From the NCBI GenBank assembly GCA_022750295.1, contig JAKIVZ010000007.1, forward strand, positions 21,808-85,807: a stretch of 64,000 nucleotides of DNA. Direction: 5' to 3'. Both the position numbers and the translations under genes were made by a program. The first letter of the stretch is position 1. Each line of letters begins with the position of its first letter. This stretch comes from Candidatus Lutacidiplasma silvani (GTDB lineage Archaea > Thermoplasmatota > Thermoplasmata > Lutacidiplasmatales > UBA184). Shown here piece by piece: positions 58 to 22,866 of this stretch. The notes below the pieces were generated by a model. That model worked only from the letters and a program-made list of their open reading frames with translations. It was not told where the DNA came from and ran no database searches.

Positions 58-190
58 TCGGAGTTCGGATTCGGATGCGGGCTATAACTCCTCCCGGCGA
101 GATTCCCGCCGGGAACGGTGGTCCCCCTCCGGGAACGCCGCCCGGGGGCCACACTTCATCTAAGCGACGGGGCTTGCGCCGGTCGTTCCC

Positions 191-553
191 GTGTACGACC
201 CGTCGGCTCCCTCGACCCCTACGTTCTCCGGCTCGGCCTCGTCCGCGCGGTACGCCTACCTCGTCGGCCGCCTCCGGGGCCGGCAGATCACGATGGAAGA
301 AGCCACCGAGCTGTTCGCGATCCAGCAGACGATGATCAGCCGGGCCAGCGTGATGAACCAAGTGCCTCCCCCGCCGCCTCCTCCGGATGTCGACGCGAAC
401 GCGCCTCCCGCCGTGCCATCCAACCCGTCGACCGGGGGCTCGCTCTTTTCGGACGAGAACCTCGCCATGACCCTGCTCGCCATGGGCGTCGGCGCCGGCC
501 TCCTCGCCGCCGTCGTCAAGCGCGCCCGGGAAGGACCGAAGCCCACCGGGTAG
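191..553 (+). CDS. small membrane protein, unknown function
   Basis: The 120-aa frame has protein-like composition, unlike the overlapping Arg-rich frames. It has a helical N-half, a PPPPPPP linker and a C-terminal TM helix (LAMTLLAMGVGAGLLAAVV then KRAREG). Its stop is 9 nt before the mre11 start. Confidence 0.55.
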   Translation: MYDPSAPSTPTFSGSASSARYAYLVGRLRGRQITMEEATELFAIQQTMISRASVMNQVPPPPPPPDVDANAPPAVPSNPSTGGSLFSDENLAMTLLAMGVGAGLLAAVVKRAREGPKPTG

Positions 554-561
554 GGGCCTCC

Positions 562-1848: not shown

Positions 1849-4469
1849 CGCTCCAGCTGGGAACGCTGACCCTCCGCAACGTCCGCAGCTACGAGTCGGC
1901 CGCCCTCACGTTCGGACCCGGGGTCACGGTCCTCACCGGCGACGTCGGCTCGGGGAAAACGAGCCTCCTTCACGCCGTCGAGATGGCCCTCTTCGGGTTC
2001 GCCGAGGTCGAGGCGCCCTACCTCGTCCGGCATCGGACGGGGGAGGCGTCGGTCTCGCTGACGTTGACCGACGAGGAGCACACGTACGAACTGGCCCGTA
2101 CGTTCCGTCGGAAGACTCGCCGGGGCCGGGAGGTGTTCGACGCCGAGGAACCGTCGTTCCGGGTCGACGGCGAGCTGCGGACGTACTCCCTGACTGAATT
2201 CCGTCAGCGGGTCATCGAGCTCCTCGGGTTTCCCGACAATCCGAATCCGCGGTCGAGGTCGGACCTGTGGCGATGGGCGGTCTACACCCCCCAGGAGCGG
2301 ATGCGGGAGATCCTCTACGACGACGAGGCCGACGCCCGCCTCGCCACGATCCGCAAGGCGCTCGGCCTCGAGCGGTACCGGCTCGCGGCCGACAACTCCG
2401 AGACCGTCGCGACCGCCCTTCGGTCCCGGGCCCGCTCGCATTCGGACGTGGCCGTCGGGTTGCAACATTTCGAGACCGACCTCGCCGTCGCGGAGGCCGA
2501 CCACGCCTCGGCCCGGGTGGCGTCTTCGCTGGCGGAGGCGGCGGCCGCCGACGGCCGACGGGAGTCGGCCACGGTCGACGAGCGGGTGGCGACCTCCGAG
2601 CGGGAACTTCGCCGTCGGGAGGGGGACCGACGGCATCTGGAGCAGCTCCGGGACGACGCGAACCGGATGGAGGCGGCGGTCGTCGCGGCCGCTCGGCGGG
2701 CCGCGGAGGCGCGAGCCGAGACCGAAGCGGCGCTCCGGGCCATCGCGGCGGCCGAGGTCGATCCGTCGTCCTTACGGTCAGCCGAGTCGGACCTGGCGGA
2801 GGCGGAGGGGGAGCTCGCAGCCGCCCGGAAGGCCGCCGACGAATCCGACCGTCTCGCCCGGGAGTGGGAGCGAAGCCGGGCCGCCGTGGAGTCGGCTCGA
2901 CGGGCCATCGCGGACCTCGAACGCGCGGTGGCCGCCGATACCACCGAACGGACCCGGGCCGAAGCGGAGCTCGCCACCGCGGAGGCGCGGGGACCCGTCC
3001 GCGAACCGACCCCCCCGACGCCGAGGTCGACGGACGAGATCGCCACCGAGCTCGCGTCGGTCCGGGTCGAGGAGCGGGCGGCGGGCGAGCTCTGGAGCGT
3101 ACGGAGGGCCGAACTCCGCGAGGTCACCGACCTCCTGGCAGCCGGACGGTGCCCGACGTGCCATCAATCGGTTCGCCCGGAGGAGTTCGCGTCGCACCAC
3201 GCGGAGGCGGAACGAGCGGCCGCCGGGGCCCGTTCCGCCGCGGAAGGGCTCGGCCAGCGCGTCGGCGCCCTCGAATCCGAGCGGTCGTCACGGGAACGGT
3301 TTGATCGGGTGCGCCAAAGCTGGCTCGGCCGCGAGGAACTCCGAGTCGCTGCGAGAGACTCGCTCGACCGGTCGCTCGCCCGCCTCGCCGATCGCACGGT
3401 GCAGCTGCAGCAGGCCGGAGCGCAGCTCGCGATCGCTCAGAGCGCGGAAGGCTCGGCCCGGTCCCTCGCCGGGGCGTTCGAGGGTGCGGTCGCGCGACGG
3501 GCGTCCGCCGAGGCGGGACGGGACCGCGCGCGGGAGGCGCTGCTCGGCCTCCAGCGGGCGATCACGACCGTCGAGGCGCTCCGGACGGCGGCGGCAACCT
3601 CCCAATCCCACGCTGCGCGGGAGGGCGAGCGACTTCGGGAACTCGAGCAGCAACGGGAGGAGATTCGCGGGGCGATCCGGTCGTTCACGGAGGGGCTCGC
3701 CGGGGCGGTCGACGCCGACCGGACCCACGCTGAGCTCCTCGCCCGGCGGGACGAGGTTCGCCGCCGGGAACTGGCGACCCATGCGGCGGCGACGGCCGCC
3801 GCCGAGCGACTCCGGTTCGCAGAGGAACGGCGGACGGCCGCGGAGCGCGGCGTGACGGAGCGACGCCACCACGTGGCGGCCGCCGAACTGCACGGTCGGA
3901 CGGCCGCGTTCGTGGCCGGCCCGTTCCGGGACGCCCTGCTCGACCTGGAACGCCGGCTGCTCGGCCGGGCCCAGGTGACGTTCGAGCGGTCGTTCGCGAA
4001 ATCGTTCTCGGCGCTCGTCGAGGACCCGGGGCTCCTCGCCCGGTGCAGCCCCACGTTCGTCCCGTACGTCGAGATCGACGGCGAGATGACGCCCGCCGAG
4101 GCGCTCAGCGGAGGGGAACGGACGGCCCTCGCCCTCGCCTTCCGGCTGGCCCTCGGGGAAGTGGTCCGGGCGGCCGGCCGCCTGCGGCTCGACACGGTCG
4201 TCCTCGACGAACCGACGGACGGGTTCTCTCCGGAACAAGTCGTCCGGATGGGCGAACTCCTTCGGGAATTGCCGTGGGGCCAGGTCGTGGTCGTCACTCA
4301 CGAAGCCGGGTTGGCGGGGATCGCCGACGCCTCGGTCCGGGTCCGGAAGGACGGCGGAGTGTCGCGGCTCGAGGGGGCGGGGACCGTCCCGGCCGGGCCG
4401 GAGCCGGTGGTCCGACGGCCTCGTCGTCGCACGACGCGGGTCGACGCGCCGTCGCCGTCGGCTACGTGA
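1845..4469 (+). CDS. rad50: Rad50 SMC-like ATPase
   Basis: Walker A GDVGSGKTSLL, a central zinc hook CPTCHQ inside a long Ala/Glu/Arg coiled coil, signature LSGGERTALALAFRLAL and Walker B VVLDEPTDGF. Its GTG start overlaps the mre11 stop (GTGA). Confidence 0.95.
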   Translation: MTLQLGTLTLRNVRSYESAALTFGPGVTVLTGDVGSGKTSLLHAVEMALFGFAEVEAPYLVRHRTGEASVSLTLTDEEHTYELARTFRRKTRRGREVFDAEEPSFRVDGELRTYSLTEFRQRVIELLGFPDNPNPRSRSDLWRWAVYTPQERMREILYDDEADARLATIRKALGLERYRLAADNSETVATALRSRARSHSDVAVGLQHFETDLAVAEADHASARVASSLAEAAAADGRRESATVDERVATSERELRRREGDRRHLEQLRDDANRMEAAVVAAARRAAEARAETEAALRAIAAAEVDPSSLRSAESDLAEAEGELAAARKAADESDRLAREWERSRAAVESARRAIADLERAVAADTTERTRAEAELATAEARGPVREPTPPTPRSTDEIATELASVRVEERAAGELWSVRRAELREVTDLLAAGRCPTCHQSVRPEEFASHHAEAERAAAGARSAAEGLGQRVGALESERSSRERFDRVRQSWLGREELRVAARDSLDRSLARLADRTVQLQQAGAQLAIAQSAEGSARSLAGAFEGAVARRASAEAGRDRAREALLGLQRAITTVEALRTAAATSQSHAAREGERLRELEQQREEIRGAIRSFTEGLAGAVDADRTHAELLARRDEVRRRELATHAAATAAAERLRFAEERRTAAERGVTERRHHVAAAELHGRTAAFVAGPFRDALLDLERRLLGRAQVTFERSFAKSFSALVEDPGLLARCSPTFVPYVEIDGEMTPAEALSGGERTALALAFRLALGEVVRAAGRLRLDTVVLDEPTDGFSPEQVVRMGELLRELPWGQVVVVTHEAGLAGIADASVRVRKDGGVSRLEGAGTVPAGPEPVVRRPRRRTTRVDAPSPSAT

Positions 4470-8061: not shown

Positions 8062-9495
8062 TCAGGTGACGGGGGGGTCCGCCTTCCGACCGAGCAAGAT
8101 GGGTGTCACGACCCGGTGGTGGAGGGCGTCGGCGGCGCCCGAGATCCCGTCCAAGACCGGGGGCGGAAGCTTGCCGCGAACCTTCGAGAGCGAGGCCGCC
8201 AGCTCGAACCGTGCCTGCGACCACCGGTACAGGCTCTCCGGGTAGACGGCTTCGTAGAGGAGGGTGCGTCCACCTCCGTTCTTCGCGAGGGGGCGACGGG
8301 ACCGCGTGAGCCGGTCCTTGACGGCCTCGTAGAACCGAGTCCCGGGGACCGGCACCGCGATCGAGACGGAGTACTCCTCGGGGCTGAACTTCCGGAACAG
8401 CTTCAGCGTCGCCTCGATGTCGTCCATCGTCTCCCCGGGGTATCCCAACATCAGGAACCAGAACTGCCGGATCCCCTCGGCCCGGAGCGCCTCGGCCGCC
8501 CGTTCGACCTGGGAGAGCTTGGTTCCCCGGTTCATCGTGTCGAGCATCCGTTGGCTGCCGGACTCGACCCCCACGTAGACCCGCTCGAGGCCGGCCCGCC
8601 GCATCCGGGCGAGGAGGTCGGGCTTCAGAAGGTCGACACGGGCGAGGCACTCGAACCGGAGGCCGAGCTCTTCGCCCAGCATCCGGTCGAGGAGGTCTTC
8701 GAGCCAGCTCCGCTGGATCCCGAACACATCGTCGCAGAATCGGACGTAGTCCACGTGATACCGGTCCCGGAGCGCCCGGAGCTCCTCGACGACGCGGCCG
8801 ACCGATTGCTGGCGGAACGACCGGCCGAACGTCGGCTTCGAGCACCACGCGCAGTCGAACGGGCACCCCCGGGAGGTGAGGACCGCCATCCGGCGATCGC
8901 CCGTTCCCTTCTGCCAGACCGAGAGGTACCGCTCGAGGTCGATCATGTCCCACGCCGGAAGGGGGAGGTCGTCGAGCGAGGGGAGAAAGGGGCGGGGCGG
9001 GCCACGGACGACCCGTCCCGCGCGCCGGACTGCGAGGCCGGCGATCCCGCGGGCGTCGGCGCCGGCCCCCACGCACCGGGCCAGCTCGGTGAGCGTTTCC
9101 TCGCCCTCGGCCAAGGCGACCGCGTCGAACGCGGACGCGAGATAGGTCTCAGGACGGGTCGCGGCGTCGGGCCCACCCGCCACCGTGTACGCCCCGGCGG
9201 CGTGGGCGAGCCGTCCCACCGCGAGCGCGCGCTCTATGGTGAGGGTCTTGGTGTGGACGCCGACGATGTCGGGGGCGAATTTCCGGATCGCGGCGGAAAC
9301 CGGTCGCGTGTCGCGGGCGAATGTCAGGTCGACGACCGCGACCTCGATCCGTCGGGCTCGGAGGTACGCCGCGAGGGTCAAGATGCCGAGCGACGGGTAG
9401 AGCTCGACGAACCTCCGTTCCATCGGGTCGTCCCGGGCGAGGTACGGATCGACGAGGAGGACCCGCGGAGAACGGGACTCGCCACTACCCGGCAC
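8062..9495 (-). CDS. B12-binding-domain radical SAM protein (class B-like), function unknown
   Basis: N-terminal cobalamin-binding-like Rossmann segment (VLLVDP...LGILTLAAYLRARRIEVAVVDL...VAGGPDAT) followed by the radical-SAM cluster motif SRGCPFDCAWCSKP. Its start overlaps the ferredoxin stop. Confidence 0.9.
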   Translation of the reverse strand: MPGSGESRSPRVLLVDPYLARDDPMERRFVELYPSLGILTLAAYLRARRIEVAVVDLTFARDTRPVSAAIRKFAPDIVGVHTKTLTIERALAVGRLAHAAGAYTVAGGPDAATRPETYLASAFDAVALAEGEETLTELARCVGAGADARGIAGLAVRRAGRVVRGPPRPFLPSLDDLPLPAWDMIDLERYLSVWQKGTGDRRMAVLTSRGCPFDCAWCSKPTFGRSFRQQSVGRVVEELRALRDRYHVDYVRFCDDVFGIQRSWLEDLLDRMLGEELGLRFECLARVDLLKPDLLARMRRAGLERVYVGVESGSQRMLDTMNRGTKLSQVERAAEALRAEGIRQFWFLMLGYPGETMDDIEATLKLFRKFSPEEYSVSIAVPVPGTRFYEAVKDRLTRSRRPLAKNGGGRTLLYEAVYPESLYRWSQARFELAASLSKVRGKLPPPVLDGISGAADALHHRVVTPILLGRKADPPVT

Positions 9496-9691
9496 GCCGA
9501 CCCCCGGCCCGCGCGACCTTTCCGGCGGGCATCGCGAGCGCGCCCACGGGACAGTACGGGATGCACCAACCGCAATCGGTGCAGTGATCGAGGACGGCGA
9601 GGCGGGTCGGGTCCAGCTCGAGCGCGTTGGGGGGACACACCCCCGTGCAGAGGCCGCAGAGGACGCAGCAGTCGGGGTCGACGACGATCAC
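9485..9691 (-). CDS. 2x[4Fe-4S] ferredoxin (about 68 aa)
   Basis: Two CxxCxxCxxxCP motifs (CVLCGLCTGVCP, CTDCGWCIPYCP). An in-frame GTG at 9691 overlaps the upstream gene's TGA (GTGA). The longer ORF to 9787 would overlap that gene. Confidence 0.8.
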   Translation of the reverse strand: MIVVDPDCCVLCGLCTGVCPPNALELDPTRLAVLDHCTDCGWCIPYCPVGALAMPAGKVARAGGRRAG

Positions 9692-10255: not shown

Positions 10256-10939
10256 CTAGGTCGCGGCGCCGAGGCGGATCGGGGATGCCACGGCCTCGAG
10301 ATCGTCTGGGGAGGTCGGCCCGTCCGGAACGGCGAGCGTCGTGCGGCGCCGCGGGAGTACCTTCGGGCCGGCGGGTCGCTCGGGGACCTGGTTCAGCGAG
10401 AGCAGGCCGGCCGACTGGAGTTCGTGCCCGATCTTCTCGACGGCGAGCGCGAGGTCGCGGGGGCGACGGGCGCCCGTGCACACCATCTTGCCGCTCGAAA
10501 AGAGGAGGAGGACCACTCGCGGGTCGTCGATCCGGTAGACCAGTCCGGGGAACTGCTCGGGCTCGTACTCGACCCGGTCCAGTCCGAGCGTGACCGCAAC
10601 GATGTTCAGATCCAACTCCGAGCCGAGGTCGGACGTCGCCACGATGTTCTGAATCTCGATCTTCGGGTTCCGCACAACCGGGACCTTCCCCTTCCGGAGC
10701 TGCGCGGAGATCGCCTGGATTGACCGCTCAACCTGACTCGAGCTCTTCCCACCGGTACAGACGAGTTTGCCGGAGTGGAAGAGGAGGATCGCGGTCTTCG
10801 GGTCCTTCATCCGATAAATCAGCCCGGGGAATTGGGCGGGGTCGTACTCGGCCCCGTCCAGTTGGAAGGCGATCGTCAACAGGTCGAGCTCGGGCCCGAG
10901 CGAGGTCGAGGCGACCACGTTCTCGATACGAATTCGCAT
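10256..10939 (-). CDS. tbp: TATA-box binding protein with an extended C-terminal tail
   Basis: Two direct TBP repeats: IENVVASTSLG..EYDPAQFPGLIYRM..LLFHSGKLVCTG and IQNIVATSDLG..EYEPEQFPGLVYRI..LLFSSGKMVCTG. About 45 extra non-conserved residues follow the second repeat. Confidence 0.95.
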   Translation of the reverse strand: MRIRIENVVASTSLGPELDLLTIAFQLDGAEYDPAQFPGLIYRMKDPKTAILLFHSGKLVCTGGKSSSQVERSIQAISAQLRKGKVPVVRNPKIEIQNIVATSDLGSELDLNIVAVTLGLDRVEYEPEQFPGLVYRIDDPRVVLLLFSSGKMVCTGARRPRDLALAVEKIGHELQSAGLLSLNQVPERPAGPKVLPRRRTTLAVPDGPTSPDDLEAVASPIRLGAAT

Positions 10940-10980
10940 GATGGCAGTATATAGACTATATAAGATGCTATTTAAGGGGG
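10940..10980. promoter_or_regulatory. AT-rich island with several TATA-like elements upstream of tbp
   Basis: GATGGCAGTATATAGACTATATAAGATGCTATTTAAGGGGG stands out in otherwise roughly 70% GC DNA. On the minus strand TTAAATAG, TTATATAG and CTATATAC lie 10-40 nt upstream of the tbp ATG (10939). Confidence 0.6.
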
Positions 10981-11207
10981 GCGACTCGCGAGCCTCCGTT
11001 CAACGACCTTCGGCGACCCCCCCAGGGAAGCCCGGTGACCTCCCTTCCCATCGGGCTCGCCGATGCGGACCTCGGTCGTCGCCCGAACATCCTGAGAACG
11101 CGCGGCCCGGTTTCGCCTAAGCTGCGTACCCGGAACGAACCGAATTCCTCTTCTCCGGCGACGTACAGCGATTCAGCAAGTTTCCGGAGCCCGCCCTCCC
11201 CGGACGC

Positions 11208-12644: not shown

Positions 12645-13052
12645 ATGCCCCTCGTCCTCGACCCCGAGGCGCACTCGGTCGAGCGGCTCCGGGAGTTGCT
12701 CGACGACCAGCGGTCCGGTCTCGAGAGCCTCCTCCCGCGATTCCAAGATGCGGCGCCCGGTTACCGCGACCCAATCAGTCTCCGCACGGCCGCTGACCTC
12801 GTCGCGGACGCGCTCCGCGCGGTGGACCGGCTCGCGGGGCCCGACGCCACCCGGGACGAGCTCGCGGCGGCGGTGAACCTCGCCTACTCGACGGTCGTCG
12901 CCGGGATCGACCTTTGGAAGACGCACTCGGGGGGTCCGCTGGTCCCCCGGGGCCGAGCGGCGAAACCCACCAAAGGAACGCAGGCGGGCGGCCCCGCCCG
13001 TCGACGACGGACGGCGCCTAGCCGACCGCGCCGGTCATCTCGAGCTGGATAA
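12645..13052 (+). CDS. hypothetical helical protein with a basic C-terminal tail
   Basis: The ATG is 12 nt after the sufD stop. The first roughly 100 aa are protein-like (LDPEAHSVERLRELLDDQRSGLESLL...AAAVNLAYSTVVAGIDLW). The last roughly 35 aa are Arg/Pro-rich and overlap the sufB 3' end, so the true end or the reality of the ORF is uncertain. Confidence 0.4.
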   Translation: MPLVLDPEAHSVERLRELLDDQRSGLESLLPRFQDAAPGYRDPISLRTAADLVADALRAVDRLAGPDATRDELAAAVNLAYSTVVAGIDLWKTHSGGPLVPRGRAAKPTKGTQAGGPARRRRTAPSRPRRSSRAG

Positions 13053-14430
13053 GACGGTTGAGCTCGAGCGCGTAGTCGACGGGGAGCTCCTTCGAGAACT
13101 CGGCAAGGAACCCCATCAGGATCAGGTGGATCGCGTCCGACTCGTTGAGGCCGCGGCTCATCAGGTAGAAGATCTGCTCTTCGCCGATCTTCCCGACGAC
13201 GGCCTCGTGCGTGATCGTGGCGTCCTCCTCGTGGATCTCGTTGTACGGGTACGTGTCGGAGCGGCTCTCCTCGTCGGGGAGTAGCGCGTCGCACCGGACC
13301 GCCGCCTTGACGCCGGTGGCGCCTGGTGCGACATGGAGGAGTCCCCGGTAGCTGGTCTGGCCCCCGCGGATCGCGATCGACTTCGCGATGATCTTGCTCG
13401 AGGTGTCCGGGGCCGAGTGGACCGCTTTCGCGCCGGAGTCGATGATCTGCCCGGCGGAGGCGAAGGCGACCGACAGGATGTCGGCGCGGGCCCCGCGTCC
13501 GCGGAGGTACACCGACGGGTACTTCATCGTGATCTTGCTGCCGAGGTTCCCGTCGACCCATTCGACGAGCGAGTTCTCGTAAGCGACCGCCCGCTTCGTC
13601 ACCAGGTTGTAGACGTTCTTCGACCAGTTCTGGACGGTCGTGTACCGGACCTTCGCGTACGGCTCGGCGACGACCTCGACGACGGCCGCGTGGAGCGAAT
13701 CGGTCGAGTAGACCGGAGCCGTACACCCTTCAATATAGTGGATCTTCGAGCCCGTGTCCCCGATGATCAGCGTCCGCTCGAACTGGCCGACGTTCTTCGC
13801 GTTGATCCGGAAGTACGCCTGGAGCGGAATCCCCGCGTCGACACCGGGCGGGATGTAGACGAAGCTCCCGCCGGACCAGACGGCGCTGTTCAACGCCGAG
13901 AACTTGTTGTCGTTGTAGGGGACGATCTTTCCGAAGTACTTTCGGACGATGTCCGGGTACTCCTTCACCGCCGTATCGGTGTCGGTGAAGACGACCCCCT
14001 TCGCCGCGAGGTCCTCCCGGATCTTGTGGTAGACGGTGCCGCTGTCGTACTGGGCGCCGACGCCGCCGAAGAACTCCCGCTCGGCCTTCGGGATCCCGAG
14101 CTTGTCGAACGTGTTCTTGATGTCGGCGGGGAGGTCGTCCCAGCTCTTCTTCGTGTCCCCCTCGGCGAGGGGGTTCGCGTAGTAGGTGTAGGCGTCGAAA
14201 TCGATCTCGTCGAGGGAAGGGCCCCAGTCTGGCATCGGCCGGGACACGAAGTGGTCGTACGCGCGAAGCCGATACTCGCGCAGCCACTCGGGCTCGTTCT
14301 TCAGGTCGCTGATCTTCTGGACGATCTCGCGGCTGAGCCCCTTGGCCGTCCGGACCTTGTACGTCTCCGGGTCCTTGAAATCGTACCGTGTATAATCGAG
14401 GGGTTGAAAGGTGGGGGAGGTCTGCGCCAT
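13018..14430 (-). CDS. sufB: Fe-S cluster assembly protein SufB
   Basis: Full-length SufB wording: YDFKDPETYKVRTAKGLS, EPEWLREYRLRAY, AVWSGGSFVYIPPGV, GDTGSKIHYIEGCTAP, RCDALLPDEESRSDTYPYNEI, EEQIFYLMSRGL. Confidence 0.95.
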   Translation of the reverse strand: MAQTSPTFQPLDYTRYDFKDPETYKVRTAKGLSREIVQKISDLKNEPEWLREYRLRAYDHFVSRPMPDWGPSLDEIDFDAYTYYANPLAEGDTKKSWDDLPADIKNTFDKLGIPKAEREFFGGVGAQYDSGTVYHKIREDLAAKGVVFTDTDTAVKEYPDIVRKYFGKIVPYNDNKFSALNSAVWSGGSFVYIPPGVDAGIPLQAYFRINAKNVGQFERTLIIGDTGSKIHYIEGCTAPVYSTDSLHAAVVEVVAEPYAKVRYTTVQNWSKNVYNLVTKRAVAYENSLVEWVDGNLGSKITMKYPSVYLRGRGARADILSVAFASAGQIIDSGAKAVHSAPDTSSKIIAKSIAIRGGQTSYRGLLHVAPGATGVKAAVRCDALLPDEESRSDTYPYNEIHEEDATITHEAVVGKIGEEQIFYLMSRGLNESDAIHLILMGFLAEFSKELPVDYALELNRLIQLEMTGAVG

Positions 14431-14460
14431 GATGTCCTCACCGATTCCATCACACCTACG

Positions 14461-14469
14461 TATTTAAAT
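14461..14469 (-). promoter_or_regulatory. TATA-like box for sufB
   Basis: ATTTAAATA on the minus strand, centred about 35 nt upstream of the sufB ATG (14430), inside the 187-nt sufS-sufB spacer. Confidence 0.45.
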
Positions 14470-14603: not shown

Positions 14604-14630
14604 GTTCGCGACCCGTCTCAGGTCGCGAAC
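14604..14630 (-). other. perfect 10-bp hairpin spanning the sufS stop codon
   Basis: GTTCGCGACC-cgtctca-GGTCGCGAAC. The loop contains the TGA (14620-14618) of sufS. Confidence 0.3.
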
Positions 14631-15847
14631 ACGGTCACGACCTTGCCGATCGCATCCAGGAACGCGTCGATCTCTTCGGCCGTGTTGTAGAGGTACGGGC
14701 TGGCGCGCGAGAGCGCGGGAACTCCAAGTCGTTCCATCAATGGTTGGGCGCAGTGATGGCCGGAGCGGATGGCGACTCCCTCGGCGTCCAGGATGCTGGC
14801 GACATCGTGCGGGTGGACACCTTCCAGGGAGAACGACAGCACCGCCTCCCGGTTCGGCCCGAGCGGAGGGCCGTAGAACCGGACCTTCGACCCGAACCGG
14901 TCTCGGGAGCCGCGGACCGCACGCTCGGCGAGCGCCTGCTCGTGGGCCGCGAGCTCGGGCCAACCGACGCCTTCGAGATAATCGAGGGCGGCCCCGAGGG
15001 CGATGGCGCCTCCGACGTTCGGGGTCCCGGCCTCGAACCGGCCTGGCGGGTCCCGGTACGTCACGCGGTCCTGGTGGACTTCGCGGATCATTTCCCCGCC
15101 TCCCATGTACGGGGGCATCTTCTGCAGGAGATCCTTGCGGCCCCAGAGGACCCCGATCCCGGTCGGGCCGAGCGTCTTGTGGCCGGAAAACGCCACGAAG
15201 TCGGCTCCGAGTTCTTGGACGTCGACCCGCCGGTGGGGCGCGGACTGCGCCGCGTCGACGACCACGAGCGCCCCGGCGTCGTGGGCGCGTTCCGCGATCT
15301 CCCGGACCGGATTGACCGTGCCGAGCACGTTGGAGACGTGGGTGAGCGTCACGACCTTGGTGGGTTTCTCCAGTCGGACGGCGAGGTCGTCCATTCGGAG
15401 TCGCCCGGCGTCGTCGATGTCGACGAACTCGAGGTCGATCCCGACCTCGCTCCGCAGGAGATGCCATGGGACGATGTTCGAGTGGTGCTCCATCACCGTG
15501 GTGAGGACCCGGTCGCCTCGATGCAGGTAGCCGCGGCCAAGTCCGTGCGCGACGAGGTTGATCGCCTCGGTCGCGCCGCGGACGAAGACGATCTCCTCCG
15601 GGTCGTCGGCGTGGAGGAACTTGGCCACGCGGGCCCGGGCGGCCTCGTACGCGGCGGTCGCCCCTTCGCTCAGCTCGTACGCGCCCCGGTGGACGTTCGC
15701 ATTCTGGGTGCGATAGTACGCGTCTTCGGTCGCGAGGACGCTGACCGGCTTCTGGCTCGTCGCGGCCGAATCGAGATAGACGAGCGGATGCCCGTGGGCG
15801 GTCCGGGTGAGGATCGGGAAGTCGCTTCGACAGCGCGCGAGGTCCAT
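14618..15847 (-). CDS. sufS: cysteine desulfurase, SufS-type (class V aminotransferase)
   Basis: YLDSAATSQKP, PLP-lysine context FSGHKTLGPTGIGVLWGR, and the catalytic Cys loop RSGHHCAQPLM typical of group II desulfurases. Confidence 0.95.
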   Translation of the reverse strand: MDLARCRSDFPILTRTAHGHPLVYLDSAATSQKPVSVLATEDAYYRTQNANVHRGAYELSEGATAAYEAARARVAKFLHADDPEEIVFVRGATEAINLVAHGLGRGYLHRGDRVLTTVMEHHSNIVPWHLLRSEVGIDLEFVDIDDAGRLRMDDLAVRLEKPTKVVTLTHVSNVLGTVNPVREIAERAHDAGALVVVDAAQSAPHRRVDVQELGADFVAFSGHKTLGPTGIGVLWGRKDLLQKMPPYMGGGEMIREVHQDRVTYRDPPGRFEAGTPNVGGAIALGAALDYLEGVGWPELAAHEQALAERAVRGSRDRFGSKVRFYGPPLGPNREAVLSFSLEGVHPHDVASILDAEGVAIRSGHHCAQPLMERLGVPALSRASPYLYNTAEEIDAFLDAIGKVVTVFAT

Positions 15848-15872: not shown

Positions 15873-16658
15873 TCAGCTCCCTTCCCGGGCGTCGGCGCGG
15901 ACCCAGTCGTACCCTTTCGCCTCGAGCTCGATCGCGAGTTCGCGGCCCCCCGACATCGCGACGACGCCGTCGACCATCACGTGGACGGCGTCCGGTTGGA
16001 GGTACTTCAGGATCCGTTGGTAGTGGGTGATCACGAGGATCCCGGAGTCAGCCCGGTGGAGCTGGTGGAGCTTCGCGACTGTCTCGCCGACCGCTTTCAC
16101 GGCATCGATGTCGAGGCCGCTGTCCGGCTCGTCCAGGATCGAGAACGTGGGGGTCAGCGTCGCCATCTGGAGGACCTCGACCCGCTTCTTCTCCCCGCCA
16201 GAGAACCCTTCGTTCAACGACCGCTTCAGCAGCGCCTCGTCCATCCCGAGGAATCCGAGGTGGGTTGTGAGGTCCTGCCCGAACTGGTCCGAGTCGGCGT
16301 TCTCCGGAGTGTGGCGTTGCATGTAGGCGGTCCAGAGGAACTTCGAGAGCGAGAGCCCCGAGACCTCCTGCGGGTACTGGAATCCGAGGAACAGCCCCGC
16401 GCGGGACCGCTGGTCGACGGGGAGTTTGAGAAGGTCGTTGCCGTCGAGGAGCGCTTCCCCCGTCGTGACTTTGTACTTCGGGTGTCCCATTAGGGCGTAG
16501 GCGAGGGTGCTCTTGCCCGAACCGTTCGGGCCCATGAGCGCGGTGAGTTCGCCGGCGCGCAGGGTCAGGTTGACCCCCTTCAAGATCTCCTTGCCGGCGA
16601 CCTCAACGTGGAGGTTTCGGACGTCGAGCGTATGCTTCGGAGGTGCATCGGCGGGCAT
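15873..16658 (-). CDS. sufC: Fe-S cluster assembly ATPase SufC
   Basis: Walker A GPNGSGKSTLAYALMGHPKY, NEGFSGGEKKRVEVLQM, Walker B ILDEPDSGLDIDA, and ITHYQRIL. It lies 25 nt upstream of sufS. Confidence 0.95.
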   Translation of the reverse strand: MPADAPPKHTLDVRNLHVEVAGKEILKGVNLTLRAGELTALMGPNGSGKSTLAYALMGHPKYKVTTGEALLDGNDLLKLPVDQRSRAGLFLGFQYPQEVSGLSLSKFLWTAYMQRHTPENADSDQFGQDLTTHLGFLGMDEALLKRSLNEGFSGGEKKRVEVLQMATLTPTFSILDEPDSGLDIDAVKAVGETVAKLHQLHRADSGILVITHYQRILKYLQPDAVHVMVDGVVAMSGGRELAIELEAKGYDWVRADAREGS

Positions 16659-16759: not shown

Positions 16760-17407
16760 ATGGCCGTAGGCGAGATGCGGGTCGGCGAAGGTACCCGCGG
16801 ACGGATCATCGAAGAACTCGCCGTCTCGCCGAAGACCGCGCGCGACCTGGCGCTCACCCTCGGGATTCAGGAGTCGGCCGCCCGAGGCCATCTTGACCGG
16901 CTCGAGGAACGTGGGCTGGTCGTCCCGACGTTCCGTCGGGAAGGAGTGGGCCGCCCCCGCAAACGGTACCTTCTCACCCCCCAGGGCCAGGAGCTGTTCC
17001 CCCGTCGGTACGAGCTGCTTCTCGATTCCGTCATGGAGGAGCTGCTCTCGTCGAAAGGGGAGGCGTTCGTATCGGAGTTGTTCGCCGACGCGGCCCGCCG
17101 GATGGCGAAGCAGATCGCCCGCGAGGTGCCGAACGATGCGTCCCCGCACGACCGGGCGCAAGCGTTGGCGGGCGCCTTGAACCACCTCGGGTTCCGATGC
17201 ACGGTCGAGTCGACGCCCGAAGGCGCCCTCAAGATCGTTCGGACCAACTGCGTGTTCCGGCACAGCGCCCTCACGCACTCGTACCTCCTCTGCGATGTTT
17301 TCGACAAGCACCTCACCGAGGAACTCCTCGGGCAGGTGGGGCTCGACCTCCAAGATTCGATCACGCGGGGCGGGATGCGGTGCACGCACCTCATTCAACT
17401 TCGCTAG
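16760..17407 (+). CDS. ArsR-type winged-helix regulator with a Cys-containing C-terminal domain (SufR-like)
   Basis: wHTH: GRIIEELAVSPKTARDLALTLGIQESAARGHLDRLEERGLV...GRPRKRYLLT. The C-terminal domain has four Cys (FRCTVE, TNCVFRH, LLCDVF, MRCTHL). It is divergent from sufCS. The start could also be 16775. Confidence 0.8.
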   Translation: MAVGEMRVGEGTRGRIIEELAVSPKTARDLALTLGIQESAARGHLDRLEERGLVVPTFRREGVGRPRKRYLLTPQGQELFPRRYELLLDSVMEELLSSKGEAFVSELFADAARRMAKQIAREVPNDASPHDRAQALAGALNHLGFRCTVESTPEGALKIVRTNCVFRHSALTHSYLLCDVFDKHLTEELLGQVGLDLQDSITRGGMRCTHLIQLR

Positions 17408-17445
17408 CGTTGCCCCGTAGGGACCCGGCGGGGACCTCAGCCGAC

Positions 17446-17946
17446 GTGCGAAGTCGACCGGGACGACCCGACCGGGACCCGCTCGCGGCAGGATTCGTCA
17501 CGTTCGCGCCCGGGGCCGCCCACCAGCTCTTCGGTATCGCAAAGCGCCGGGGGCCCCTCGAGACCGGGGGTCTCCTCATCGGTGCGTCTCTCGCCGGCCC
17601 GGCATGGTCGGTGACGGGAGTCCTCGAACTCCGAGATCCCGAAGCAACGGATCGGCATTACCGGGCTCGGGCGTACGAGGTCTGGACGGAGATCTCGCGG
17701 ACCCGCAGGAATCGGAGGAGCGTGGTCGGAATGTTCCACACCCACCCGGGGGGACTCGCCCGACCGTCCGCGCTCGATTCGAGGGCCGCTTCGTCGGGAA
17801 TTCTTCACGCCATCGTCGGGCGCGGCGCAACCGGTCCCTCACTTCGCGTCTTTCGACGGTCCGACCCGCGCTCCCCTCTCCGAGAAGTGGTCGTGGCTCG
17901 TGGCGCCCGGCGCCGGGGCCCACGGGCCGGGACGGAACGACCTTGA
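17446..17946 (+). CDS. JAMM/MPN+ (JAB) metalloprotease
   Basis: Complete JAMM signature: ETGGLLIG ... HTHPGGLARPSALD (E, HxH, x7, SxxD). The start is assigned to the in-frame GTG at 17446, after the regulator stop. The stop overlaps the next gene. Confidence 0.85.
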   Translation: MRSRPGRPDRDPLAAGFVTFAPGAAHQLFGIAKRRGPLETGGLLIGASLAGPAWSVTGVLELRDPEATDRHYRARAYEVWTEISRTRRNRRSVVGMFHTHPGGLARPSALDSRAASSGILHAIVGRGATGPSLRVFRRSDPRSPLREVVVARGARRRGPRAGTERP

Positions 17947-19397
17947 GCGACTCTCCGAAGGGAACGCTGGTGGAACTGCCGCCCTCCCTCCGGGAACTCC
18001 TCGAGGAGCCCCCCGATGAGATCCGACTGGTCGGGACGACGGTGGAGGAGGTCCTCCACGCGCTGGTCGACCAGTTCCCCGTCCTTCAGCATCACGTGTT
18101 CGCCCCGGCCGGGACCCTTCGGACCAGCGTGATCGTGCTGGTGAACGACGACGACATCCGGTACCGCCAGCGAGGCCGCACCCCGGTGGGGCCGAAGGAC
18201 CGGATCGTCCTCGTCCCCGCCCTCGCCGGGGGGGCCCCGGCGGCGCGCCGACCCCGGCGACGGACGGCGGAACTTTCCTCCGAAGAGCGGCACCGGTACA
18301 GTCGGCACCTCCTGCTCCCCGAGGTCGGGGAATCCGGGCAACGCAAACTCCGCCGTGCGAGGGTGCTGCTCGTAGGGGCCGGAGGACTCGGATCGCCGGC
18401 GGGGCTCTACCTCGCGGCCGCGGGGGTGGGCACGATCGGGATCGTGGACAGCGACTCGGTCGAGACGTCGAACCTCCAGCGCCAGGTGCTGTACGATGTG
18501 GCGTCGGTCGGGCGCTCGAAAGTGACCCGCGCCACCACCCGGCTCCGCGAACTCAATCCCCACGTCCGCGTGGTGCCCCACCGCGTCCGGTTGACGTCCC
18601 AGAATGCGCTCCGGATCCTCCGAGGGTACGACGTCGTCGTGGACGGGACCGACAACTTCCCGACCCGGTACCTCGTCAGCGACGCGTGCGCCCTGCTCGG
18701 GAAACCGGACGTCTTCGGTTCGGTCTACCGATTCGAGGGCCAGGTCTCGGTGTTCGACGCCCGCCGCGGCCCGTGCTACCGGTGCCTCTTTCCCGAGCCG
18801 CCTCCGCCGGAGCTCGTCCCGTCGTGCGCCGAGGGGGGCGTCCTCGGGGTGGTGCCCGGGCTCGTCGGGCTCTGCCAGGCGACCGAGGTCCTGAAACTGA
18901 TCCTCGGGATCGGCGAACCGCTCGTCGGCCGCCTTTGGCTCCTCGACACGTTGGCCGGGAGCTCCCGCGAGGTCCGGGTTCGCAAGAATCCCCGGTGCCC
19001 GGTGTGCGGCCGACATCCGACGCAGCGTGCCCTGATCGATTATCCCGCGTTCTGCGGAGTCGCGGGATCTTCCGAACGGGTTCCCGAGGTTACTCCGCTC
19101 GCGCTCGCCCGAGAACTGGAGCGCGAGCACCCTCCGGTGTTGGTCGACGTTCGGGAGCCCGGTGAGTGGGCGATCGCTCACCTCCCCCGGGCGAGACTCG
19201 TGCCGAAAGGGTCCCTTGCCGAACGAGTCGACGGCCTTCCTCGGCGGCGCCCGATCGTCGTCTACTGCAAGTCGGGTTCCCGGTCGGCGACCGCGGTCCG
19301 ATTTCTCCTCGACCACGGATTCGTCGATGTTCGCTCCCTCTCCGGCGGGATCGACCGGTGGGCCGAGCAGGTCGAGCCAACGATGCCCCGATACTGA
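17943..19397 (+). CDS. fusion protein: MoaD/ThiS/SAMP-like beta-grasp (ends ...ALAGG) - linker - MoeB/ThiF/UbaA-type E1 adenylyltransferase - rhodanese
   Basis: No stop occurs between the ubiquitin-like part (IRLVGTTVEEVLHALVDQFPVL...IVLVPALAGG, GG codons 18228-18233) and the E1 (RYSRHLLLPEVGESGQRKL, LVGAGGLGSP, CYRC + CPVC). The C-terminal rhodanese has VVYCKSGSRS. The start is TTG 17943 (TTGA overlap with the JAMM stop) or GTG 17970. Confidence 0.9.
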   Translation: MSDSPKGTLVELPPSLRELLEEPPDEIRLVGTTVEEVLHALVDQFPVLQHHVFAPAGTLRTSVIVLVNDDDIRYRQRGRTPVGPKDRIVLVPALAGGAPAARRPRRRTAELSSEERHRYSRHLLLPEVGESGQRKLRRARVLLVGAGGLGSPAGLYLAAAGVGTIGIVDSDSVETSNLQRQVLYDVASVGRSKVTRATTRLRELNPHVRVVPHRVRLTSQNALRILRGYDVVVDGTDNFPTRYLVSDACALLGKPDVFGSVYRFEGQVSVFDARRGPCYRCLFPEPPPPELVPSCAEGGVLGVVPGLVGLCQATEVLKLILGIGEPLVGRLWLLDTLAGSSREVRVRKNPRCPVCGRHPTQRALIDYPAFCGVAGSSERVPEVTPLALARELEREHPPVLVDVREPGEWAIAHLPRARLVPKGSLAERVDGLPRRRPIVVYCKSGSRSATAVRFLLDHGFVDVRSLSGGIDRWAEQVEPTMPRY

Positions 19398-19447
19398 ACC
19401 CGCGCGGCCGCCCGGGCCCCTCGGTAGGGGGCGTCGACCGGGCCGTC

Positions 19448-19993
19448 TCAGGCGCCCATGGCGCTCGCGGGGGCGAACTGGGAGATCCCGACCGACGGAC
19501 TGTACGAGCGGACCCGGCGCGAGAGCTCCTGTCCGAACTCGACGGGGTGCTTCGGCGAAATGAACAGCGGATAGTCGCCGGCCGTGACGAGGACTCCGGC
19601 CGAGATCGTGTGGATCGAGTCGAACGTGTGGATGAGCGGGCTCCACATCCGGCCGCGCCACCCCCACCCGCCGAAGAAGCTCACCGGCCCGAGGTCCCGG
19701 AGGTTCGCGAACTCGACCCGACGGACCTCCTCGAGGGGAACGGTGCGGGAGCCGAACAGGCGACGAGCGTGCAACGCGCGGTCGTCGAGCACGTAGTACG
19801 TCGAGGCGTACCGGGCGAGGAAGAGGAAGATCACGCCGATCAAGAACTCGGGCACGAGCGCGTTCGAAGTGAACGACGAGTGGACGGTCGCGTACACGAT
19901 CAGGAGGGCGAGGACGATGTACATCGCGACGACCGCGATCGAGATCGGCGCGCCGACCCGGACCCGGCCGCGAGAATCGGGGGTCAGGGCCAT
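19448..19993 (-). CDS. membrane protein with bacterial-PH-like (YdbS/bPH) domain
   Basis: Two N-terminal TM helices (ISIAVVAMYIVLALLIVYA, FLIGVIFLFLARYA) then YYVLDDRALHARRLFGSRTVPLEEVRRVEF, typical of membrane-tethered PH-like domains. Confidence 0.7.
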   Translation of the reverse strand: MALTPDSRGRVRVGAPISIAVVAMYIVLALLIVYATVHSSFTSNALVPEFLIGVIFLFLARYASTYYVLDDRALHARRLFGSRTVPLEEVRRVEFANLRDLGPVSFFGGWGWRGRMWSPLIHTFDSIHTISAGVLVTAGDYPLFISPKHPVEFGQELSRRVRSYSPSVGISQFAPASAMGA

Positions 19994-20084
19994 CCGAGGC
20001 GCCGACGCGGGACGCTCCCCATAAGGATTTCAATCGACCTCGGCAGCGTTGAGGCCGGGGTGTCCGCGACGGCGGCGGACGGGA

Positions 20085-20444
20085 TTACTTCGCGGACTTC
20101 TTCGGCAGCCGGCGGCCGTACTCCAGGGCGCGATTGACCCAGCCCTCGACCGCCGGAAGATCGGCGAGGAGGCGGGTCGGGAGCTCGACGTACTCCCGCA
20201 TGGGGCGACCGGGCATCGGCTCGAACGCAATCGCCCCGAGGTCCTTCAACGCCGACGCCCGGTCGGCCTCGGACAAACGCACGATCAGGTGGTTTCCGAA
20301 GACGCTGAAGAACATGTTCCCGTCGACGAACACCGCGGGTTGCCCGAACACCAGCCGCCGGGTCACCCCCGCCACCTTCGGAACGAGGGAATCGAACGCG
20401 GCGACGGTTTCGGCCGCCGGCTTCGGCATTCCCGTTCCCGGCAC
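20085..20444 (-). CDS. TfoX N-terminal-domain family protein
   Basis: RRLVFGQPAVFVDGNMFFSVFGNHLIVRLSEADR...FEPMPGRPMREYVELP matches the TfoX_N pattern from memory. The start is GTG 20444 or ATG 20429. Confidence 0.7.
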   Translation of the reverse strand: MPGTGMPKPAAETVAAFDSLVPKVAGVTRRLVFGQPAVFVDGNMFFSVFGNHLIVRLSEADRASALKDLGAIAFEPMPGRPMREYVELPTRLLADLPAVEGWVNRALEYGRRLPKKSAK

Positions 20445-21090: not shown

Positions 21091-22866
21091 CTACGCCGCG
21101 GCCTCGTAGTAGAACTCGCCGCGTTCCCGCTGCTCGCGGTCGAGGACCGACCCCTCGCGATTGATCCGGGGTCGGAGCGTCTCGGCGTCGCGCCGGAACG
21201 TGACCTGGACGTCCTTGAGGAGCTGGTTCATCCCGCCCCGCATCGGAAACGGGCCGGCGCCGGATCCCGAAACCCCGTCGTCCCCGGCCCGGAATACCAT
21301 CAGGGCATCGCAGGCGAGGTCGAGGAAGTAGACATCGTGGTCGACCACGAGCGCCCCGACCGCCTGGCGCTCGACCTGGCGGCGAATGAGCTTCGCCATG
21401 GCGATCCGCTCGTCGGCGTCGAGATACGCGGACGGCTCGTCGAGAAGGTAGAGGGTCGCGGGGCGGGCGAGCGCGAGGGCGACCGCGGCCCGCTGCAGCT
21501 CGCCGCCCGACAGGTCCGGGAGGCCGACGTCCAGGAGGTCGTCGAGGTGGAGCCCGGGGACCAGCTCTCGCTCGAAGACCCCCACGTCGAATGTCGGGTC
21601 GCCCCGCAGCGCGTCGAGCCGTTCCCGGAGGCTCGCCGAGCTCGTCGCCTTCAGGTACTGCGGTTTGTAGCTGACCGAGACGCCGGCCGGGGGGGTCCCC
21701 ACCGTCGCCGGCTCCGCCCCCGCGAGCATCCGGACGAACGTCGTCTTGCCGGTCGCGTTGGGGCCGACGATGCCGATCGTCTCCCCCTTGGCAATCTCAC
21801 CGGCGCCGACGGTCAGGTGGAAGTTCGGGAACCGTTTCTCGAGCGGGGGGAACGCGACGAGGGCGTTCCGCTGGGTGGCGAGCTTCGGCGGGTGGGCGAC
21901 GAACCGGACCGGCTCGGTCCGGAACCGGACGTTCTCGTCCTTCAGGTAGCCGGTCAGGTAGGTGTTGATGGCGCTCCGCATCGCGATCGGATGGGAGATC
22001 ACGCCGAACGCCGCCTCCTCGCCGTAGACGAGGTGCGCCTGATCCGCGAGATAGTCGAGGAGGGCGAGGTCGTGCTCGACGACGACCACGCTCTTCGTTT
22101 CCCCCAGCCGTCGGAGGAGCCGGGCGATCTCGAGCCGGTGGACGATGTCGAGGTAGCTCGACGGCTCGTCGATCAGGTAGAGGTCGGCGTCGGTGGCGAC
22201 GGTCCGGGCGATCGCGAGGAGCTGGAGCTCGCCCCCCGAGAGCTCCGCGACGGGGCGCGAGGCGCGGCGCTCCAGGCCGACCGAGCGGAGCGCGGCGTCG
22301 GCGTCGACCCCGGACCGGGTCAGGAACTCGGTGGCGGTGCCCGCTTCCTCCGAGAACCGGTCGACGTACTGGGGCTTGAACACCGCCCGGAGGGTCCCGT
22401 TCGCGATCTTCTGGAAGTGGGCGTGGAGCGACGTCCCTCGGTATCGTTCCAAGACCGCCTCCCACGTGGACGGGGTGTCGTACTTCCCTAAGTTGGGGAC
22501 CTCGACCCCCGCCAGTACCCGGAGCGCGGTCGATTTCCCCGTTCCGTTCGGGCCGAGGATCCCCGTGATCCCCTTCGTCGGAGGCAGCGGCAGTCGGTAG
22601 AGCCGGAAGCCGTTGTACCCGTACCGGTGAACGATCTCCGTCTCGTCGGCCTCGGGGGTGTTGAGGATCTTGATCGCGTCGAACGGGCACTTGTGGACGC
22701 AGATGCCGCACCCGATGCAGAGCGTCTCGGAGATCACCGGTCGACCGTCGGTCCCCTCGACAATGCACTCCTGGCCCATCCGGACCGGGGGGCAGTAGGC
22801 CTGGCATTCCCACTGGCACTCCTTCGGGTGGCACCGGTCGCGGAGGAGGATCGCGATCCGGGCCAC
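21091..22866 (-). CDS. abce1: ABCE1 / RNase L inhibitor-type ribosome-recycling ATPase
   Basis: N-terminal FeS domain (DRCHPKECQWECQAYCPPV...CIGCGICVHKCPFDAI) plus two ABC cassettes (GPNGTGKSTAL, LSGGELQ; GPNATGKTTFV, LSGGELQRAAVA). The GTG start directly follows the upstream TAG. Confidence 0.95.
   Translation of the reverse strand: MARIAILLRDRCHPKECQWECQAYCPPVRMGQECIVEGTDGRPVISETLCIGCGICVHKCPFDAIKILNTPEADETEIVHRYGYNGFRLYRLPLPPTKGITGILGPNGTGKSTALRVLAGVEVPNLGKYDTPSTWEAVLERYRGTSLHAHFQKIANGTLRAVFKPQYVDRFSEEAGTATEFLTRSGVDADAALRSVGLERRASRPVAELSGGELQLLAIARTVATDADLYLIDEPSSYLDIVHRLEIARLLRRLGETKSVVVVEHDLALLDYLADQAHLVYGEEAAFGVISHPIAMRSAINTYLTGYLKDENVRFRTEPVRFVAHPPKLATQRNALVAFPPLEKRFPNFHLTVGAGEIAKGETIGIVGPNATGKTTFVRMLAGAEPATVGTPPAGVSVSYKPQYLKATSSASLRERLDALRGDPTFDVGVFERELVPGLHLDDLLDVGLPDLSGGELQRAAVALALARPATLYLLDEPSAYLDADERIAMAKLIRRQVERQAVGALVVDHDVYFLDLACDALMVFRAGDDGVSGSGAGPFPMRGGMNQLLKDVQVTFRRDAETLRPRINREGSVLDREQRERGEFYYEAAA

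Follow-up and report, generated by a model that had tools for sequence, protein, structure and literature searches.

The 64-kb window analyzed here, a continuous stretch of contig JAKIVZ010000007.1 from Candidatus Lutacidiplasma silvani, contains two overlapping forward-strand genes, the first coding for a JAMM metalloprotease and the second for a 484 residue protein in which a ubiquitin-like (Ubl) carrier domain, a short linker, an activating enzyme (E1) adenylation domain, and a rhodanese domain follow one another in a single open reading frame (ORF) (Table 1). The ORF survey of the window finds this frame open from 17604 to the stop codon at 19395–19397, and the start that fits the homologues is a TTG at 17943. 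Three Pfam domains score above their gathering thresholds: ThiS (residues 30–97, E 2.9e-8, 34.6 bits against a cut-off of 22.5), in which Gly97 occupies the last profile position, ThiF (residues 119–354, E 3.8e-82), and Rhodanese (residues 388–475, E 5.6e-18). Because this window of ~70% GC contains very long spurious ORFs on the opposite strand, including one of 742 residues that runs antisense to the fusion (17805–20033, − strand), ORF length alone is no evidence of a gene in it. The archaeal origin presumed in a preliminary description, made from the sequence alone, is borne out by the TBP, ABCE1, and Mre11/Rad50-like genes in the window and by homologues named as Thermoplasmata.

Table 1. 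Positions of the fusion gene, its domains, and other genes in the window
Feature	Coordinates	Strand	Evidence
Ubl-linker-E1-rhodanese fusion, single ORF, 484 aa	17943–19397	+	Pfam, NCBIfam, AF2
Ubl (ThiS/MoaD/CysO-type beta-grasp), residues 1–97	17943–18233	+	Pfam ThiS, AF2/Foldseek, family profile
Arg/Pro/Ala-rich linker, residues 98–117 (20 aa)	18234–18293	+	low pLDDT, hypervariability
MoeB/ThiF/MoeZ-type adenylation (E1) domain, residues 118–373	18294–19061	+	Pfam ThiF, conserved residues
Rhodanese domain, residues 388–475	19104–19367	+	Pfam Rhodanese, conserved residues
JAMM/MPN+ metalloprotease (Mec+/desampylase-like)	17446–17946	+	Prok-JAB, catalytic residues
SufR-like winged-helix regulator	16760–17407	+	HTH_5/PadR/MarR_2 matches; 39 nt upstream of JAMM/fusion unit
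sufC	15873–16658	−	homologous loci annotated ABC_tran
sufS-like class-V aminotransferase	14618–15847	−	homologous loci annotated Aminotran_5
sufB	13018–14463	−	Pfam SUFBD
Small membrane protein	19448–19993	−	weak bacterial-PH-domain match
TfoX_N-domain protein	20085–20444	−	
Mre11/Rad50-like genes	88–4469	+	
B12-binding radical SAM enzyme	8062–9687	−	
TBP	10256–10999	−	
ABCE1	21091–22866	−	

The E1 domain carries the RYSRH arginine finger, the GAGGLG loop, the CxxC pairs C278/C281 and C352/C355, and Cys295, and the active-site loop of the rhodanese domain reads C442-KSGSRS, with the Cys codon at 19266–19268. The full-length AlphaFold2 (AF2) model, built from an alignment of homologues (A1), has a predicted local distance difference test (pLDDT) score of 89.8 and a predicted template modeling (pTM) score of 0.70. 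Foldseek matches the E1-rhodanese part to Uba4 (6yub, the best match), ThiF, and MoeB, with template modeling (TM) scores of 0.95–0.97 relative to the target. None of the 20 linker codons is an in-frame ATG, GTG, or TTG, and the E1 can therefore be made only as the fusion, with no separate translation.

Modeled alone, residues 1–97 form a beta-grasp fold (AF2 pLDDT 88.7), in agreement with the nature first ascribed to this segment; Foldseek places 1v8c, SAMP1, and CysO at TM ~0.8 and Urm1 at ~0.65–0.68. The best solved-structure match, 1v8c, is a 168 residue MoaD-related protein of Thermus thermophilus whose Gly-Gly is internal (residues 86–87) and is followed by a further domain, and it represents another natural fusion with an internal Gly-Gly (GG). 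In the window protein, Gly96–Gly97, encoded at 18228–18233 as originally described, is invariant throughout A1. The linker between this GG and RYSRH varies from 12 to 34 residues, is rich in Ala, Pro, Ser, and Arg, and is unconserved beyond its first two positions: 108 of 118 homologues have Ala or Ser at P1’, and 92 of 118 have Pro at P2’. The pLDDT falls below 50 at residues 94–106, the GG tail and the beginning of the linker, and cleavage is predicted between Gly97 and Ala98.

The start of the JAMM gene is uncertain, either GTG at 17446 or TTG at 17410, and its TGA stop codon at 17944–17946 forms a 4 nt overlap, TTGA, with the TTG start of the fusion. Its product matches Prok-JAB (E 8.7e-14, 51.8 bits against a Pfam cut-off of 25), and the residues of its E...HxHx7Sx2D motif (E39, H98, H100, S108, and D111) do not vary among 12 aligned orthologues; both the overlap and the intact catalytic site had been read correctly. 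An intact JAMM motif gene alongside the fusion is an arrangement of the Mec+ type. In every Thermoplasmata locus examined the JAMM gene immediately precedes the fusion, and gene finders often fail to call it (L001, L002, L003, L004, L013, L084, L085, and L088, with the C-terminal part only in L087). The JAMM protein evolves much faster than the adjoining fusion gene yet retains every catalytic residue.

The GG and first linker codons form a G7C4 homopolymer (18228–18238), a typical indel site of long-read assemblies, and one homologue, P0011 of locus L086, is visibly frameshift-damaged. The fusion could accordingly be an artefact, an assembly or sequencing indel in this run having merged two separate genes, but the probability of this is close to nil. 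First, 117 of the 119 aligned homologues (55–86% identity, 476–526 residues), which come from many samples and sequencing platforms, carry ThiS, ThiF, and Rhodanese together, with an invariant GG and with linkers that are all different and variable in length; the remaining two are one frameshift-damaged call and one partial sequence. This also upholds the four-part protein of the preliminary description. Second, the GC content at third codon positions (GC3) is 0.82–0.94 across the Ubl, the linker, and most of the E1 domain, and 0.72–0.76 at the rhodanese end (19050–19350); because the bias stays in one frame throughout, there is no frame change at the Ubl–E1 junction. Third, of the two shifted frames, one has its nearest stop codon 46 codons away and the other has none within 200 codons. 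The E1 nucleotide loop, both CxxC zinc pairs, Cys295, and the rhodanese residues Cys442 and Arg447 are also invariant in A1. The 654 residue P0011, which has no recognizable Ubl, was considered as a JAMM-Ubl-E1 quadruple fusion and rejected: L086 is an error-rich long-read assembly with many broken genes, SufS, SufC, ABCE1, and others being fragmented on it, which points to assembly error and not to a variant architecture.

Fused and split loci among relatives

A scan of one genome per species yielded 80 loci, and all fetched loci were searched by tblastn and with iterated hidden Markov models (HMMs). Matches taking in the Ubl come from Acidobacteriota (many), Gemmatimonadota, Chloroflexota, Bacteroidota, Elusimicrobia, Verrucomicrobiota, Eisenbacteria, Thermodesulfobacteriota, and two metagenome-assembled genomes (MAGs) labeled as Firmicutes. 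When 1.84 billion cluster representatives were searched with residues 1–180, ~55 of the best 150 matches crossed the Ubl-linker-E1 junction in one alignment, and the fusion is thus widespread. It is not an archaeal speciality, being common also in Acidobacteriota, Chloroflexota, Gemmatimonadota, and other bacteria, among whose genes the archaeal ones are nested. On a neighbor-joining tree of the E1-rhodanese part, the Thermoplasmata form one group within the bacterial sequences, which agrees with the transfer from Acidobacteria to Archaea suggested where PMC11237513 treats these fusions.

Counting the window, the Ubl adjoins the E1 in 45 loci, fused to it in one ORF in 27 and split from it by a stop codon in 18. 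A JAMM gene and a PALP-family gene are both present in 18 of the fused and 11 of the split loci, JAMM only in six fused and one split, and neither was detected in three fused and six split loci, several of which have no upstream sequence available. The usual gene order is PALP, JAMM, and Ubl(-)E1-rhodanese; PALP and JAMM both lie directly upstream in 29 of the 45 loci, and a JAMM gene lies within the locus in 24 of the 27 fused cases. No PALP, JAMM, or Ubl gene adjoins the unfused E1-rhodanese genes of Streptomyces, Planctomycetota, and others.

Fused and split forms are interleaved on the tree. The fused L014 has the split L021 as its sister, the fused L019 and L023 fall together with the split L046, and the split L042 and L058 are sister to the fused L010 and L011. 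The stop codon after the GG has therefore been gained and lost repeatedly, as is expected if anything that follows the GG is removed anyway. The split Ubls end at the GG or up to 18 residues beyond it (GG, GGV, GGD, GGC, GGMY, GGTAR, and GGCCACCPLL, each followed by a stop codon), which supports trimming by the JAMM protease after the GG.

These comparisons bear on whether the fusion is cleaved at all. It could persist intact, with the Ubl serving as a permanent cis regulator or scaffold of the E1 and a free carrier encoded elsewhere serving as the substrate. Iyer et al. (2006) noted that fusions of a Ubl to a Campylobacter-type ThiF co-occur with solo ThiS and proposed a different role for the fused Ubl, and a pTM of 0.70 fits a compact multidomain protein. 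However, the invariant GG falls exactly at the end of the Ubl domain, orthologous split genes stop 0–18 residues past the same GG, the linker is disordered and highly variable, loci that have lost cysM still carry JAMM, and no second Ubl was detected by tblastn or HMM in the 64-kb window or adjoining fused genes. A permanently fused Ubl is thus very unlikely. Release of the Ubl after the GG, as first proposed, has gained comparative backing from the GG itself, the linker, the P1’ residue, the stop codons of split genes, and the frequency of JAMM at fused loci; that the JAMM protease makes the cut is the part of the proposal that we infer.

A putative cysteine pathway and its variant in the window clade

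The PALP gene of the sister loci is CysM-like in sequence: its product has cysM as its best NCBIfam match (324 bits, below the cut-off of 394) and the Escherichia coli and Salmonella CysM proteins as its best PDB matches. In the CysO pathway, MoeZR activates and thiocarboxylates the carrier CysO, CysM adds O-phosphoserine, and Mec+ splits the CysO-Cys adduct by hydrolysis (PMC3227635). A profile of the Ubl family (A2) matches Mycobacterium tuberculosis CysO best (3dwg_C, E 3.2e-21), followed by CysO of the BexX complex (6e-19), and ranks CysO ahead of SAMP1 and MoaD, the MoaD chain 1vjk scoring only 1.4e-3. The Ubl of locus L002, taken alone, matches CysO at E 2e-18, and Thermoplasmata of ~60% identity (L002, L004, and L013) keep the order cysM-JAMM-fusion. 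Because the sister loci have this order and the Ubl profile matches CysO best, the module probably belongs to the CysM/Mec+/CysO/MoeZ pathway. The favored explanation, to which we give a probability of roughly 0.7, is that a bacterial-type Mec+/CysO/MoeZ sulfur-carrier module is present in a member of the Thermoplasmata, with the CysO-like carrier made as the N-terminus of its own E1-rhodanese and released by the JAMM protease. No report of CysO in Thermoplasmata was found in the literature searched. The preliminary description suggested a role in sulfur mobilization; it did not recognize the cysteine pathway.

From this context we infer cleavage by the window JAMM, thiocarboxylate formation, the sulfur source, and the acceptor as follows. 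The 484 residue precursor would be made from a transcript that it probably shares with the SufR-like regulator and the JAMM gene. The JAMM protease would hydrolyse the Gly97–Ala98 bond to give a 97 residue Ubl with a C-terminal Gly-Gly and the E1-rhodanese; by analogy, a JAMM that cuts GG-Cys should have the right chemistry for GG-Ala or GG-Ser. The E1 domain would then adenylate Gly97, and a persulfide on rhodanese Cys442, for which the neighboring SufS-like desulfurase is a possible sulfur source, would turn the acyl-adenylate into a Ubl thiocarboxylate that gives its sulfur to an acceptor enzyme. In the sister Thermoplasmata and many bacteria the acceptor would be the CysM-like cysteine synthase encoded directly upstream, and at these cysM-linked loci this JAMM would have the further task of hydrolysing the Ubl-Cys adduct to free cysteine, as Mec+ does in M. 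tuberculosis. A JAMM accompanies even a Ubl that already terminates in GG (L059), and its main task in cysM-linked operons is therefore probably that of Mec+, with maturation of the precursor coming at no extra cost. In the window clade the acceptor's part may fall to a CysM whose gene lies elsewhere or to some other sulfur acceptor.

Another use of the same chemistry would be molybdenum cofactor (Moco) synthesis, the fusion being a MoaD-MoeB(-rhodanese) whose released Ubl serves MoaE. The fusion passes the NCBIfam MoeB model PRK08762 (473 bits against a cut-off of 449), its E1 is of the MoeB type and reaches a Foldseek TM of 0.95 to MoeB 1jw9_B, database sources name the homologues MoeB, and PMC11237513, in its treatment of these fusions, files them under MoaD-MoeBR. 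MoeZR also fulfils two functions in mycobacteria (PMC3227635), and because it serves both CysO and MoaD there, a Moco role could coexist with the cysteine pathway. Set against this, there is no MoaE, MoaA, MoaC, or MoeA in the 64-kb window or next to any fused locus examined, the conserved partner gene codes for a CysM-like enzyme, and the Ubl profile prefers CysO to MoaD by the E values given above. A Moco function is thus rather unlikely.

The window and loci L001, L084, L085, and L088 form a clade with the order SufR-like gene, JAMM, and fusion, and with no cysM at the locus. The SUF/SufR neighborhood seen from the outset is genuine: SufR_cyano aligns end to end with the putative regulator (E 1.7e-10, below the cut-off), sufB has its SUFBD match, and the SufR-like gene lies between a divergent sufCSB cluster and the JAMM and fusion genes, with the same neighbor in L001, L002, L084, L085, and L088. 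The SufR-like protein consists of a winged helix and a Cys-containing C-terminal domain, and its gene keeps this position in all Thermoplasmata relatives. The regulator, JAMM, and fusion genes are probably co-transcribed. The SufR/SUF arrangement is common to the cysM-containing L002, and from gene order it is plausible that the fusion module is co-regulated with Fe-S assembly.

The clade has diverged in sequence from its cysM-linked relatives in both the Ubl and the JAMM protein. Between the window and these relatives (L002–L007 and L013), identity is 57–68% in the E1-rhodanese part, 38–45% in the Ubl, and 27–33% in JAMM; within the clade it is 71–83%, 65–77%, and 39–51%, respectively. In our reading of these sequences, loss of cysM from the locus may have relaxed constraint on the surfaces concerned with CysM and with cysteine release, the carrier, E1, and protease activities being kept. 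An 81 residue ORF upstream of JAMM in L003 (5263–5505) is a remnant of the C-terminal third of a CysM-like gene, and a frameshift divides the CysM-like gene of L002 (4518–5494); the two loci stem from one long-read sample, in which real decay and assembly error are indistinguishable.

Several results weigh against the CysO-type reading. The fusion misses the NCBIfam equivalog models for MoeZ (445 bits against a cut-off of 647) and UbaA (313.5 against 450), the Ubl misses that for SAMP1 (42.6 against 60), and the JAMM protein misses the desampylase model desamp_Halo (27.4 against 130). The window Ubl alone matches CysO at only E 1.8e-3 and finds a better match in 1v8c. Searches of the 64-kb window by tblastn and HMM detected no PALP/CysM homologue, and these searches with Pfam scans of 30 further ORFs detected no MoaE, NcsA/TtuA, or ThiG. 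Codon-position GC is flat in the window JAMM gene, with a GC3 of ~0.72 versus ~0.88 in its neighbors; the JAMM proteins of the clade are only 27–35% identical to the cysM-linked ones, lack their HAWPWY motif, and have ETGG in place of E[AC]CG. The fused loci L047 and L051 show no JAMM in the fetched DNA, so a different protease is possible. Finally, no experiment on any Ubl–E1 fusion was found in the literature searched.

It is also conceivable, though doubtful, that in the window clade a bacterial cysM-mec-cysO::moeZ operon was stripped of cysM and re-purposed under the SufR-like regulator. The fusion would then be a zymogen, its E1 and carrier silent until the JAMM protease, now a dedicated maturase, makes its cut, and the Ubl would serve a new acceptor in an Fe-S, tRNA, or cofactor sulfur relay, or in sampylation-like conjugation. 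Re-purposing would account for the divergence of the Ubl from CysO, for the fast evolution of JAMM with its catalytic residues kept, and for the conservation of the Ubl within the clade. The contexts of the cysM-less fused genes L005, L037, L047, and L051 contain no common alternative acceptor. In L037 (5105–5941; Phototrophicaceae, Chloroflexota), which has no cysM, a gene for a separate tandem-rhodanese protein lies between JAMM and the fused gene. L051 (4842–9521) is a low-GC MAG labeled Ruminococcus in which the neighbors of the fused gene include a hexapeptide-repeat transferase, an SrpI-like type 2A encapsulin shell gene (E 1e-94), and a class-V aminotransferase/cysteine desulfurase; no cysM, like no JAMM, was found in its fetched DNA.

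Conjugation of the sampylation kind, in which the Ubl would be isopeptide-linked to target lysines and the JAMM protease would act as both maturase and deconjugase, is unlikely. SAMP1 of Methanosarcina acetivorans and of Haloferax volcanii are among the closest structural neighbors of the window Ubl, the NCBIfam matches to SAMP1, UbaA, and desampylase exist though weak, and the clade retained a well conserved Ubl and its JAMM after losing cysM. All three NCBIfam cut-offs are nevertheless missed, which leaves the proteins outside the SAMP, UbaA, and desampylase sequence families, the module descends from a bacterial cysteine-synthesis operon, and the fused rhodanese domain indicates sulfur transfer.

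None of the more distant genes in Table 1 (Mre11/Rad50-like, B12-binding radical SAM enzyme, TBP, and ABCE1) is linked to the fusion. Two small genes sit between the fusion gene and ABCE1. At the position of the first, just downstream of the fusion, a gene of similar size (161–181 residues) is conserved in L002, L084, L085, and L088, with Pfam bPH_5 recorded only in L002; the TfoX_N domain of the second is found in L001, L084, L085, and L088, and not in L002.

Known systems and implications

The M. tuberculosis CysO/CysM/Mec+/MoeZR system (Burns et al. 2005; PMC3227635) comprises the same four protein types, namely a GG-bearing beta-grasp carrier of the CysO kind, an E1 with a C-terminal rhodanese, a JAMM, and a CysM-like PLP enzyme, and the order in the sister loci is cysM-JAMM-Ubl. 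The present module differs in that CysO is fused to MoeZ, whereas moeZ is a separate, unlinked gene in M. tuberculosis, and the window clade differs further in having no cysM at the locus, a diverged Ubl and JAMM, an archaeal host, and a SufR/SUF neighborhood. Fusions of a Ubl to MoaE offer a second parallel. HvJAMM1 cuts a linear SAMP1-MoaE fusion exactly after the GG, and the cut is required for activity in vivo (PMC4443979); in this fusion, as in D. radiodurans DR0402/DRJAMM (PMC8832034) and M. tuberculosis MoaX (PMC4326299), a Ubl is joined head-to-tail with a partner and is inactive until a JAMM protease cuts after the GG. The partner in those fusions is the downstream acceptor MoaE, whereas in the window it is the upstream-acting E1.

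Eukaryotic Uba4/MOCS3 has the same E1-rhodanese architecture and supplies the best structural match, and the window Ubl resembles its carrier Urm1; unlike the window Ubl, Urm1 is encoded by a separate gene ending in GG and needs no JAMM maturation. Short C-terminal extensions are trimmed from carriers by JAMM proteases in the QbsC/QbsD/QbsE and PdtF/G/H systems of Pseudomonas (thioquinolobactin and pyridine dithiocarboxylate, PDTC) and in HcyS/HcyD/HcyF of Wolinella, where QbsD and HcyD remove extensions of 1–2 residues; the operon type is row 4a of Iyer et al. (2006). These systems share with the window locus an E1-rhodanese, a JAMM protease, and a Ubl precursor whose GG would have to be exposed by the JAMM, and the split relatives described here have GG tails of 1–18 residues; however, the extension in the window is a whole 387 residue activating enzyme.

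The locus has precedents in comparative genomics as well. Iyer, Burroughs and Aravind (2006) described operons of JAB, ThiS/MoaD, and E1-rhodanese genes with and without cysteine synthase, in addition to the different Ubl-ThiF fusion discussed above. Makarova and Koonin (2010; PMC2948915) noted Ubl-E1 fusions in Thaumarchaeota, with the architecture Ubl-E1-TBP. The section of PMC11237513 (mSystems 2024) on clusters 356.1–356.3 describes MoaD-MoeB and MoaD-MoeB-rhodanese fusions, the triple fusion, cluster 356.3, occurring in uncultivated Euryarchaeota with a suggested acidobacterial origin; its ThiS/MoaD, ThiF/MoeB, and Rhodanese order in one polypeptide is identical to that of the window fusion. 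Where they deal with the fusion, PMC2948915 and PMC11237513 assign it to Moco synthesis and draw no link to an adjacent JAMM or CysM gene. The architecture, operon type, and chemistry have thus already been described, and the window locus is a further example and not a discovery. The novelty claimed in the preliminary description was overstated, the archaeal triple fusion being already present in PMC11237513; the part that stands is the lack of an experimentally studied Ubl–E1 fusion in the literature searched.

A demonstration of the predicted cleavage would make this the first experimentally documented ubiquitin-like carrier produced as a precursor fused to its own E1, and a prokaryotic parallel to eukaryotic ubiquitin fusion precursors in which 1:1 synthesis of the two parts is enforced. 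The fused and split loci suggest a simple rule: where an operon contains a JAMM protease that cuts after the GG, anything past the GG is tolerated, and the stop codon comes and goes. Such a rule, if true, would explain many prokaryotic Ubl fusions. Genes of this family are now labeled MoeB, a molybdopterin synthase adenylyltransferase; where a cysM gene is adjacent, they are better read as CysO::MoeZ of a thiocarboxylate-dependent cysteine pathway, a relabeling that affects metabolic reconstructions of uncultivated Thermoplasmata and Acidobacteriota.

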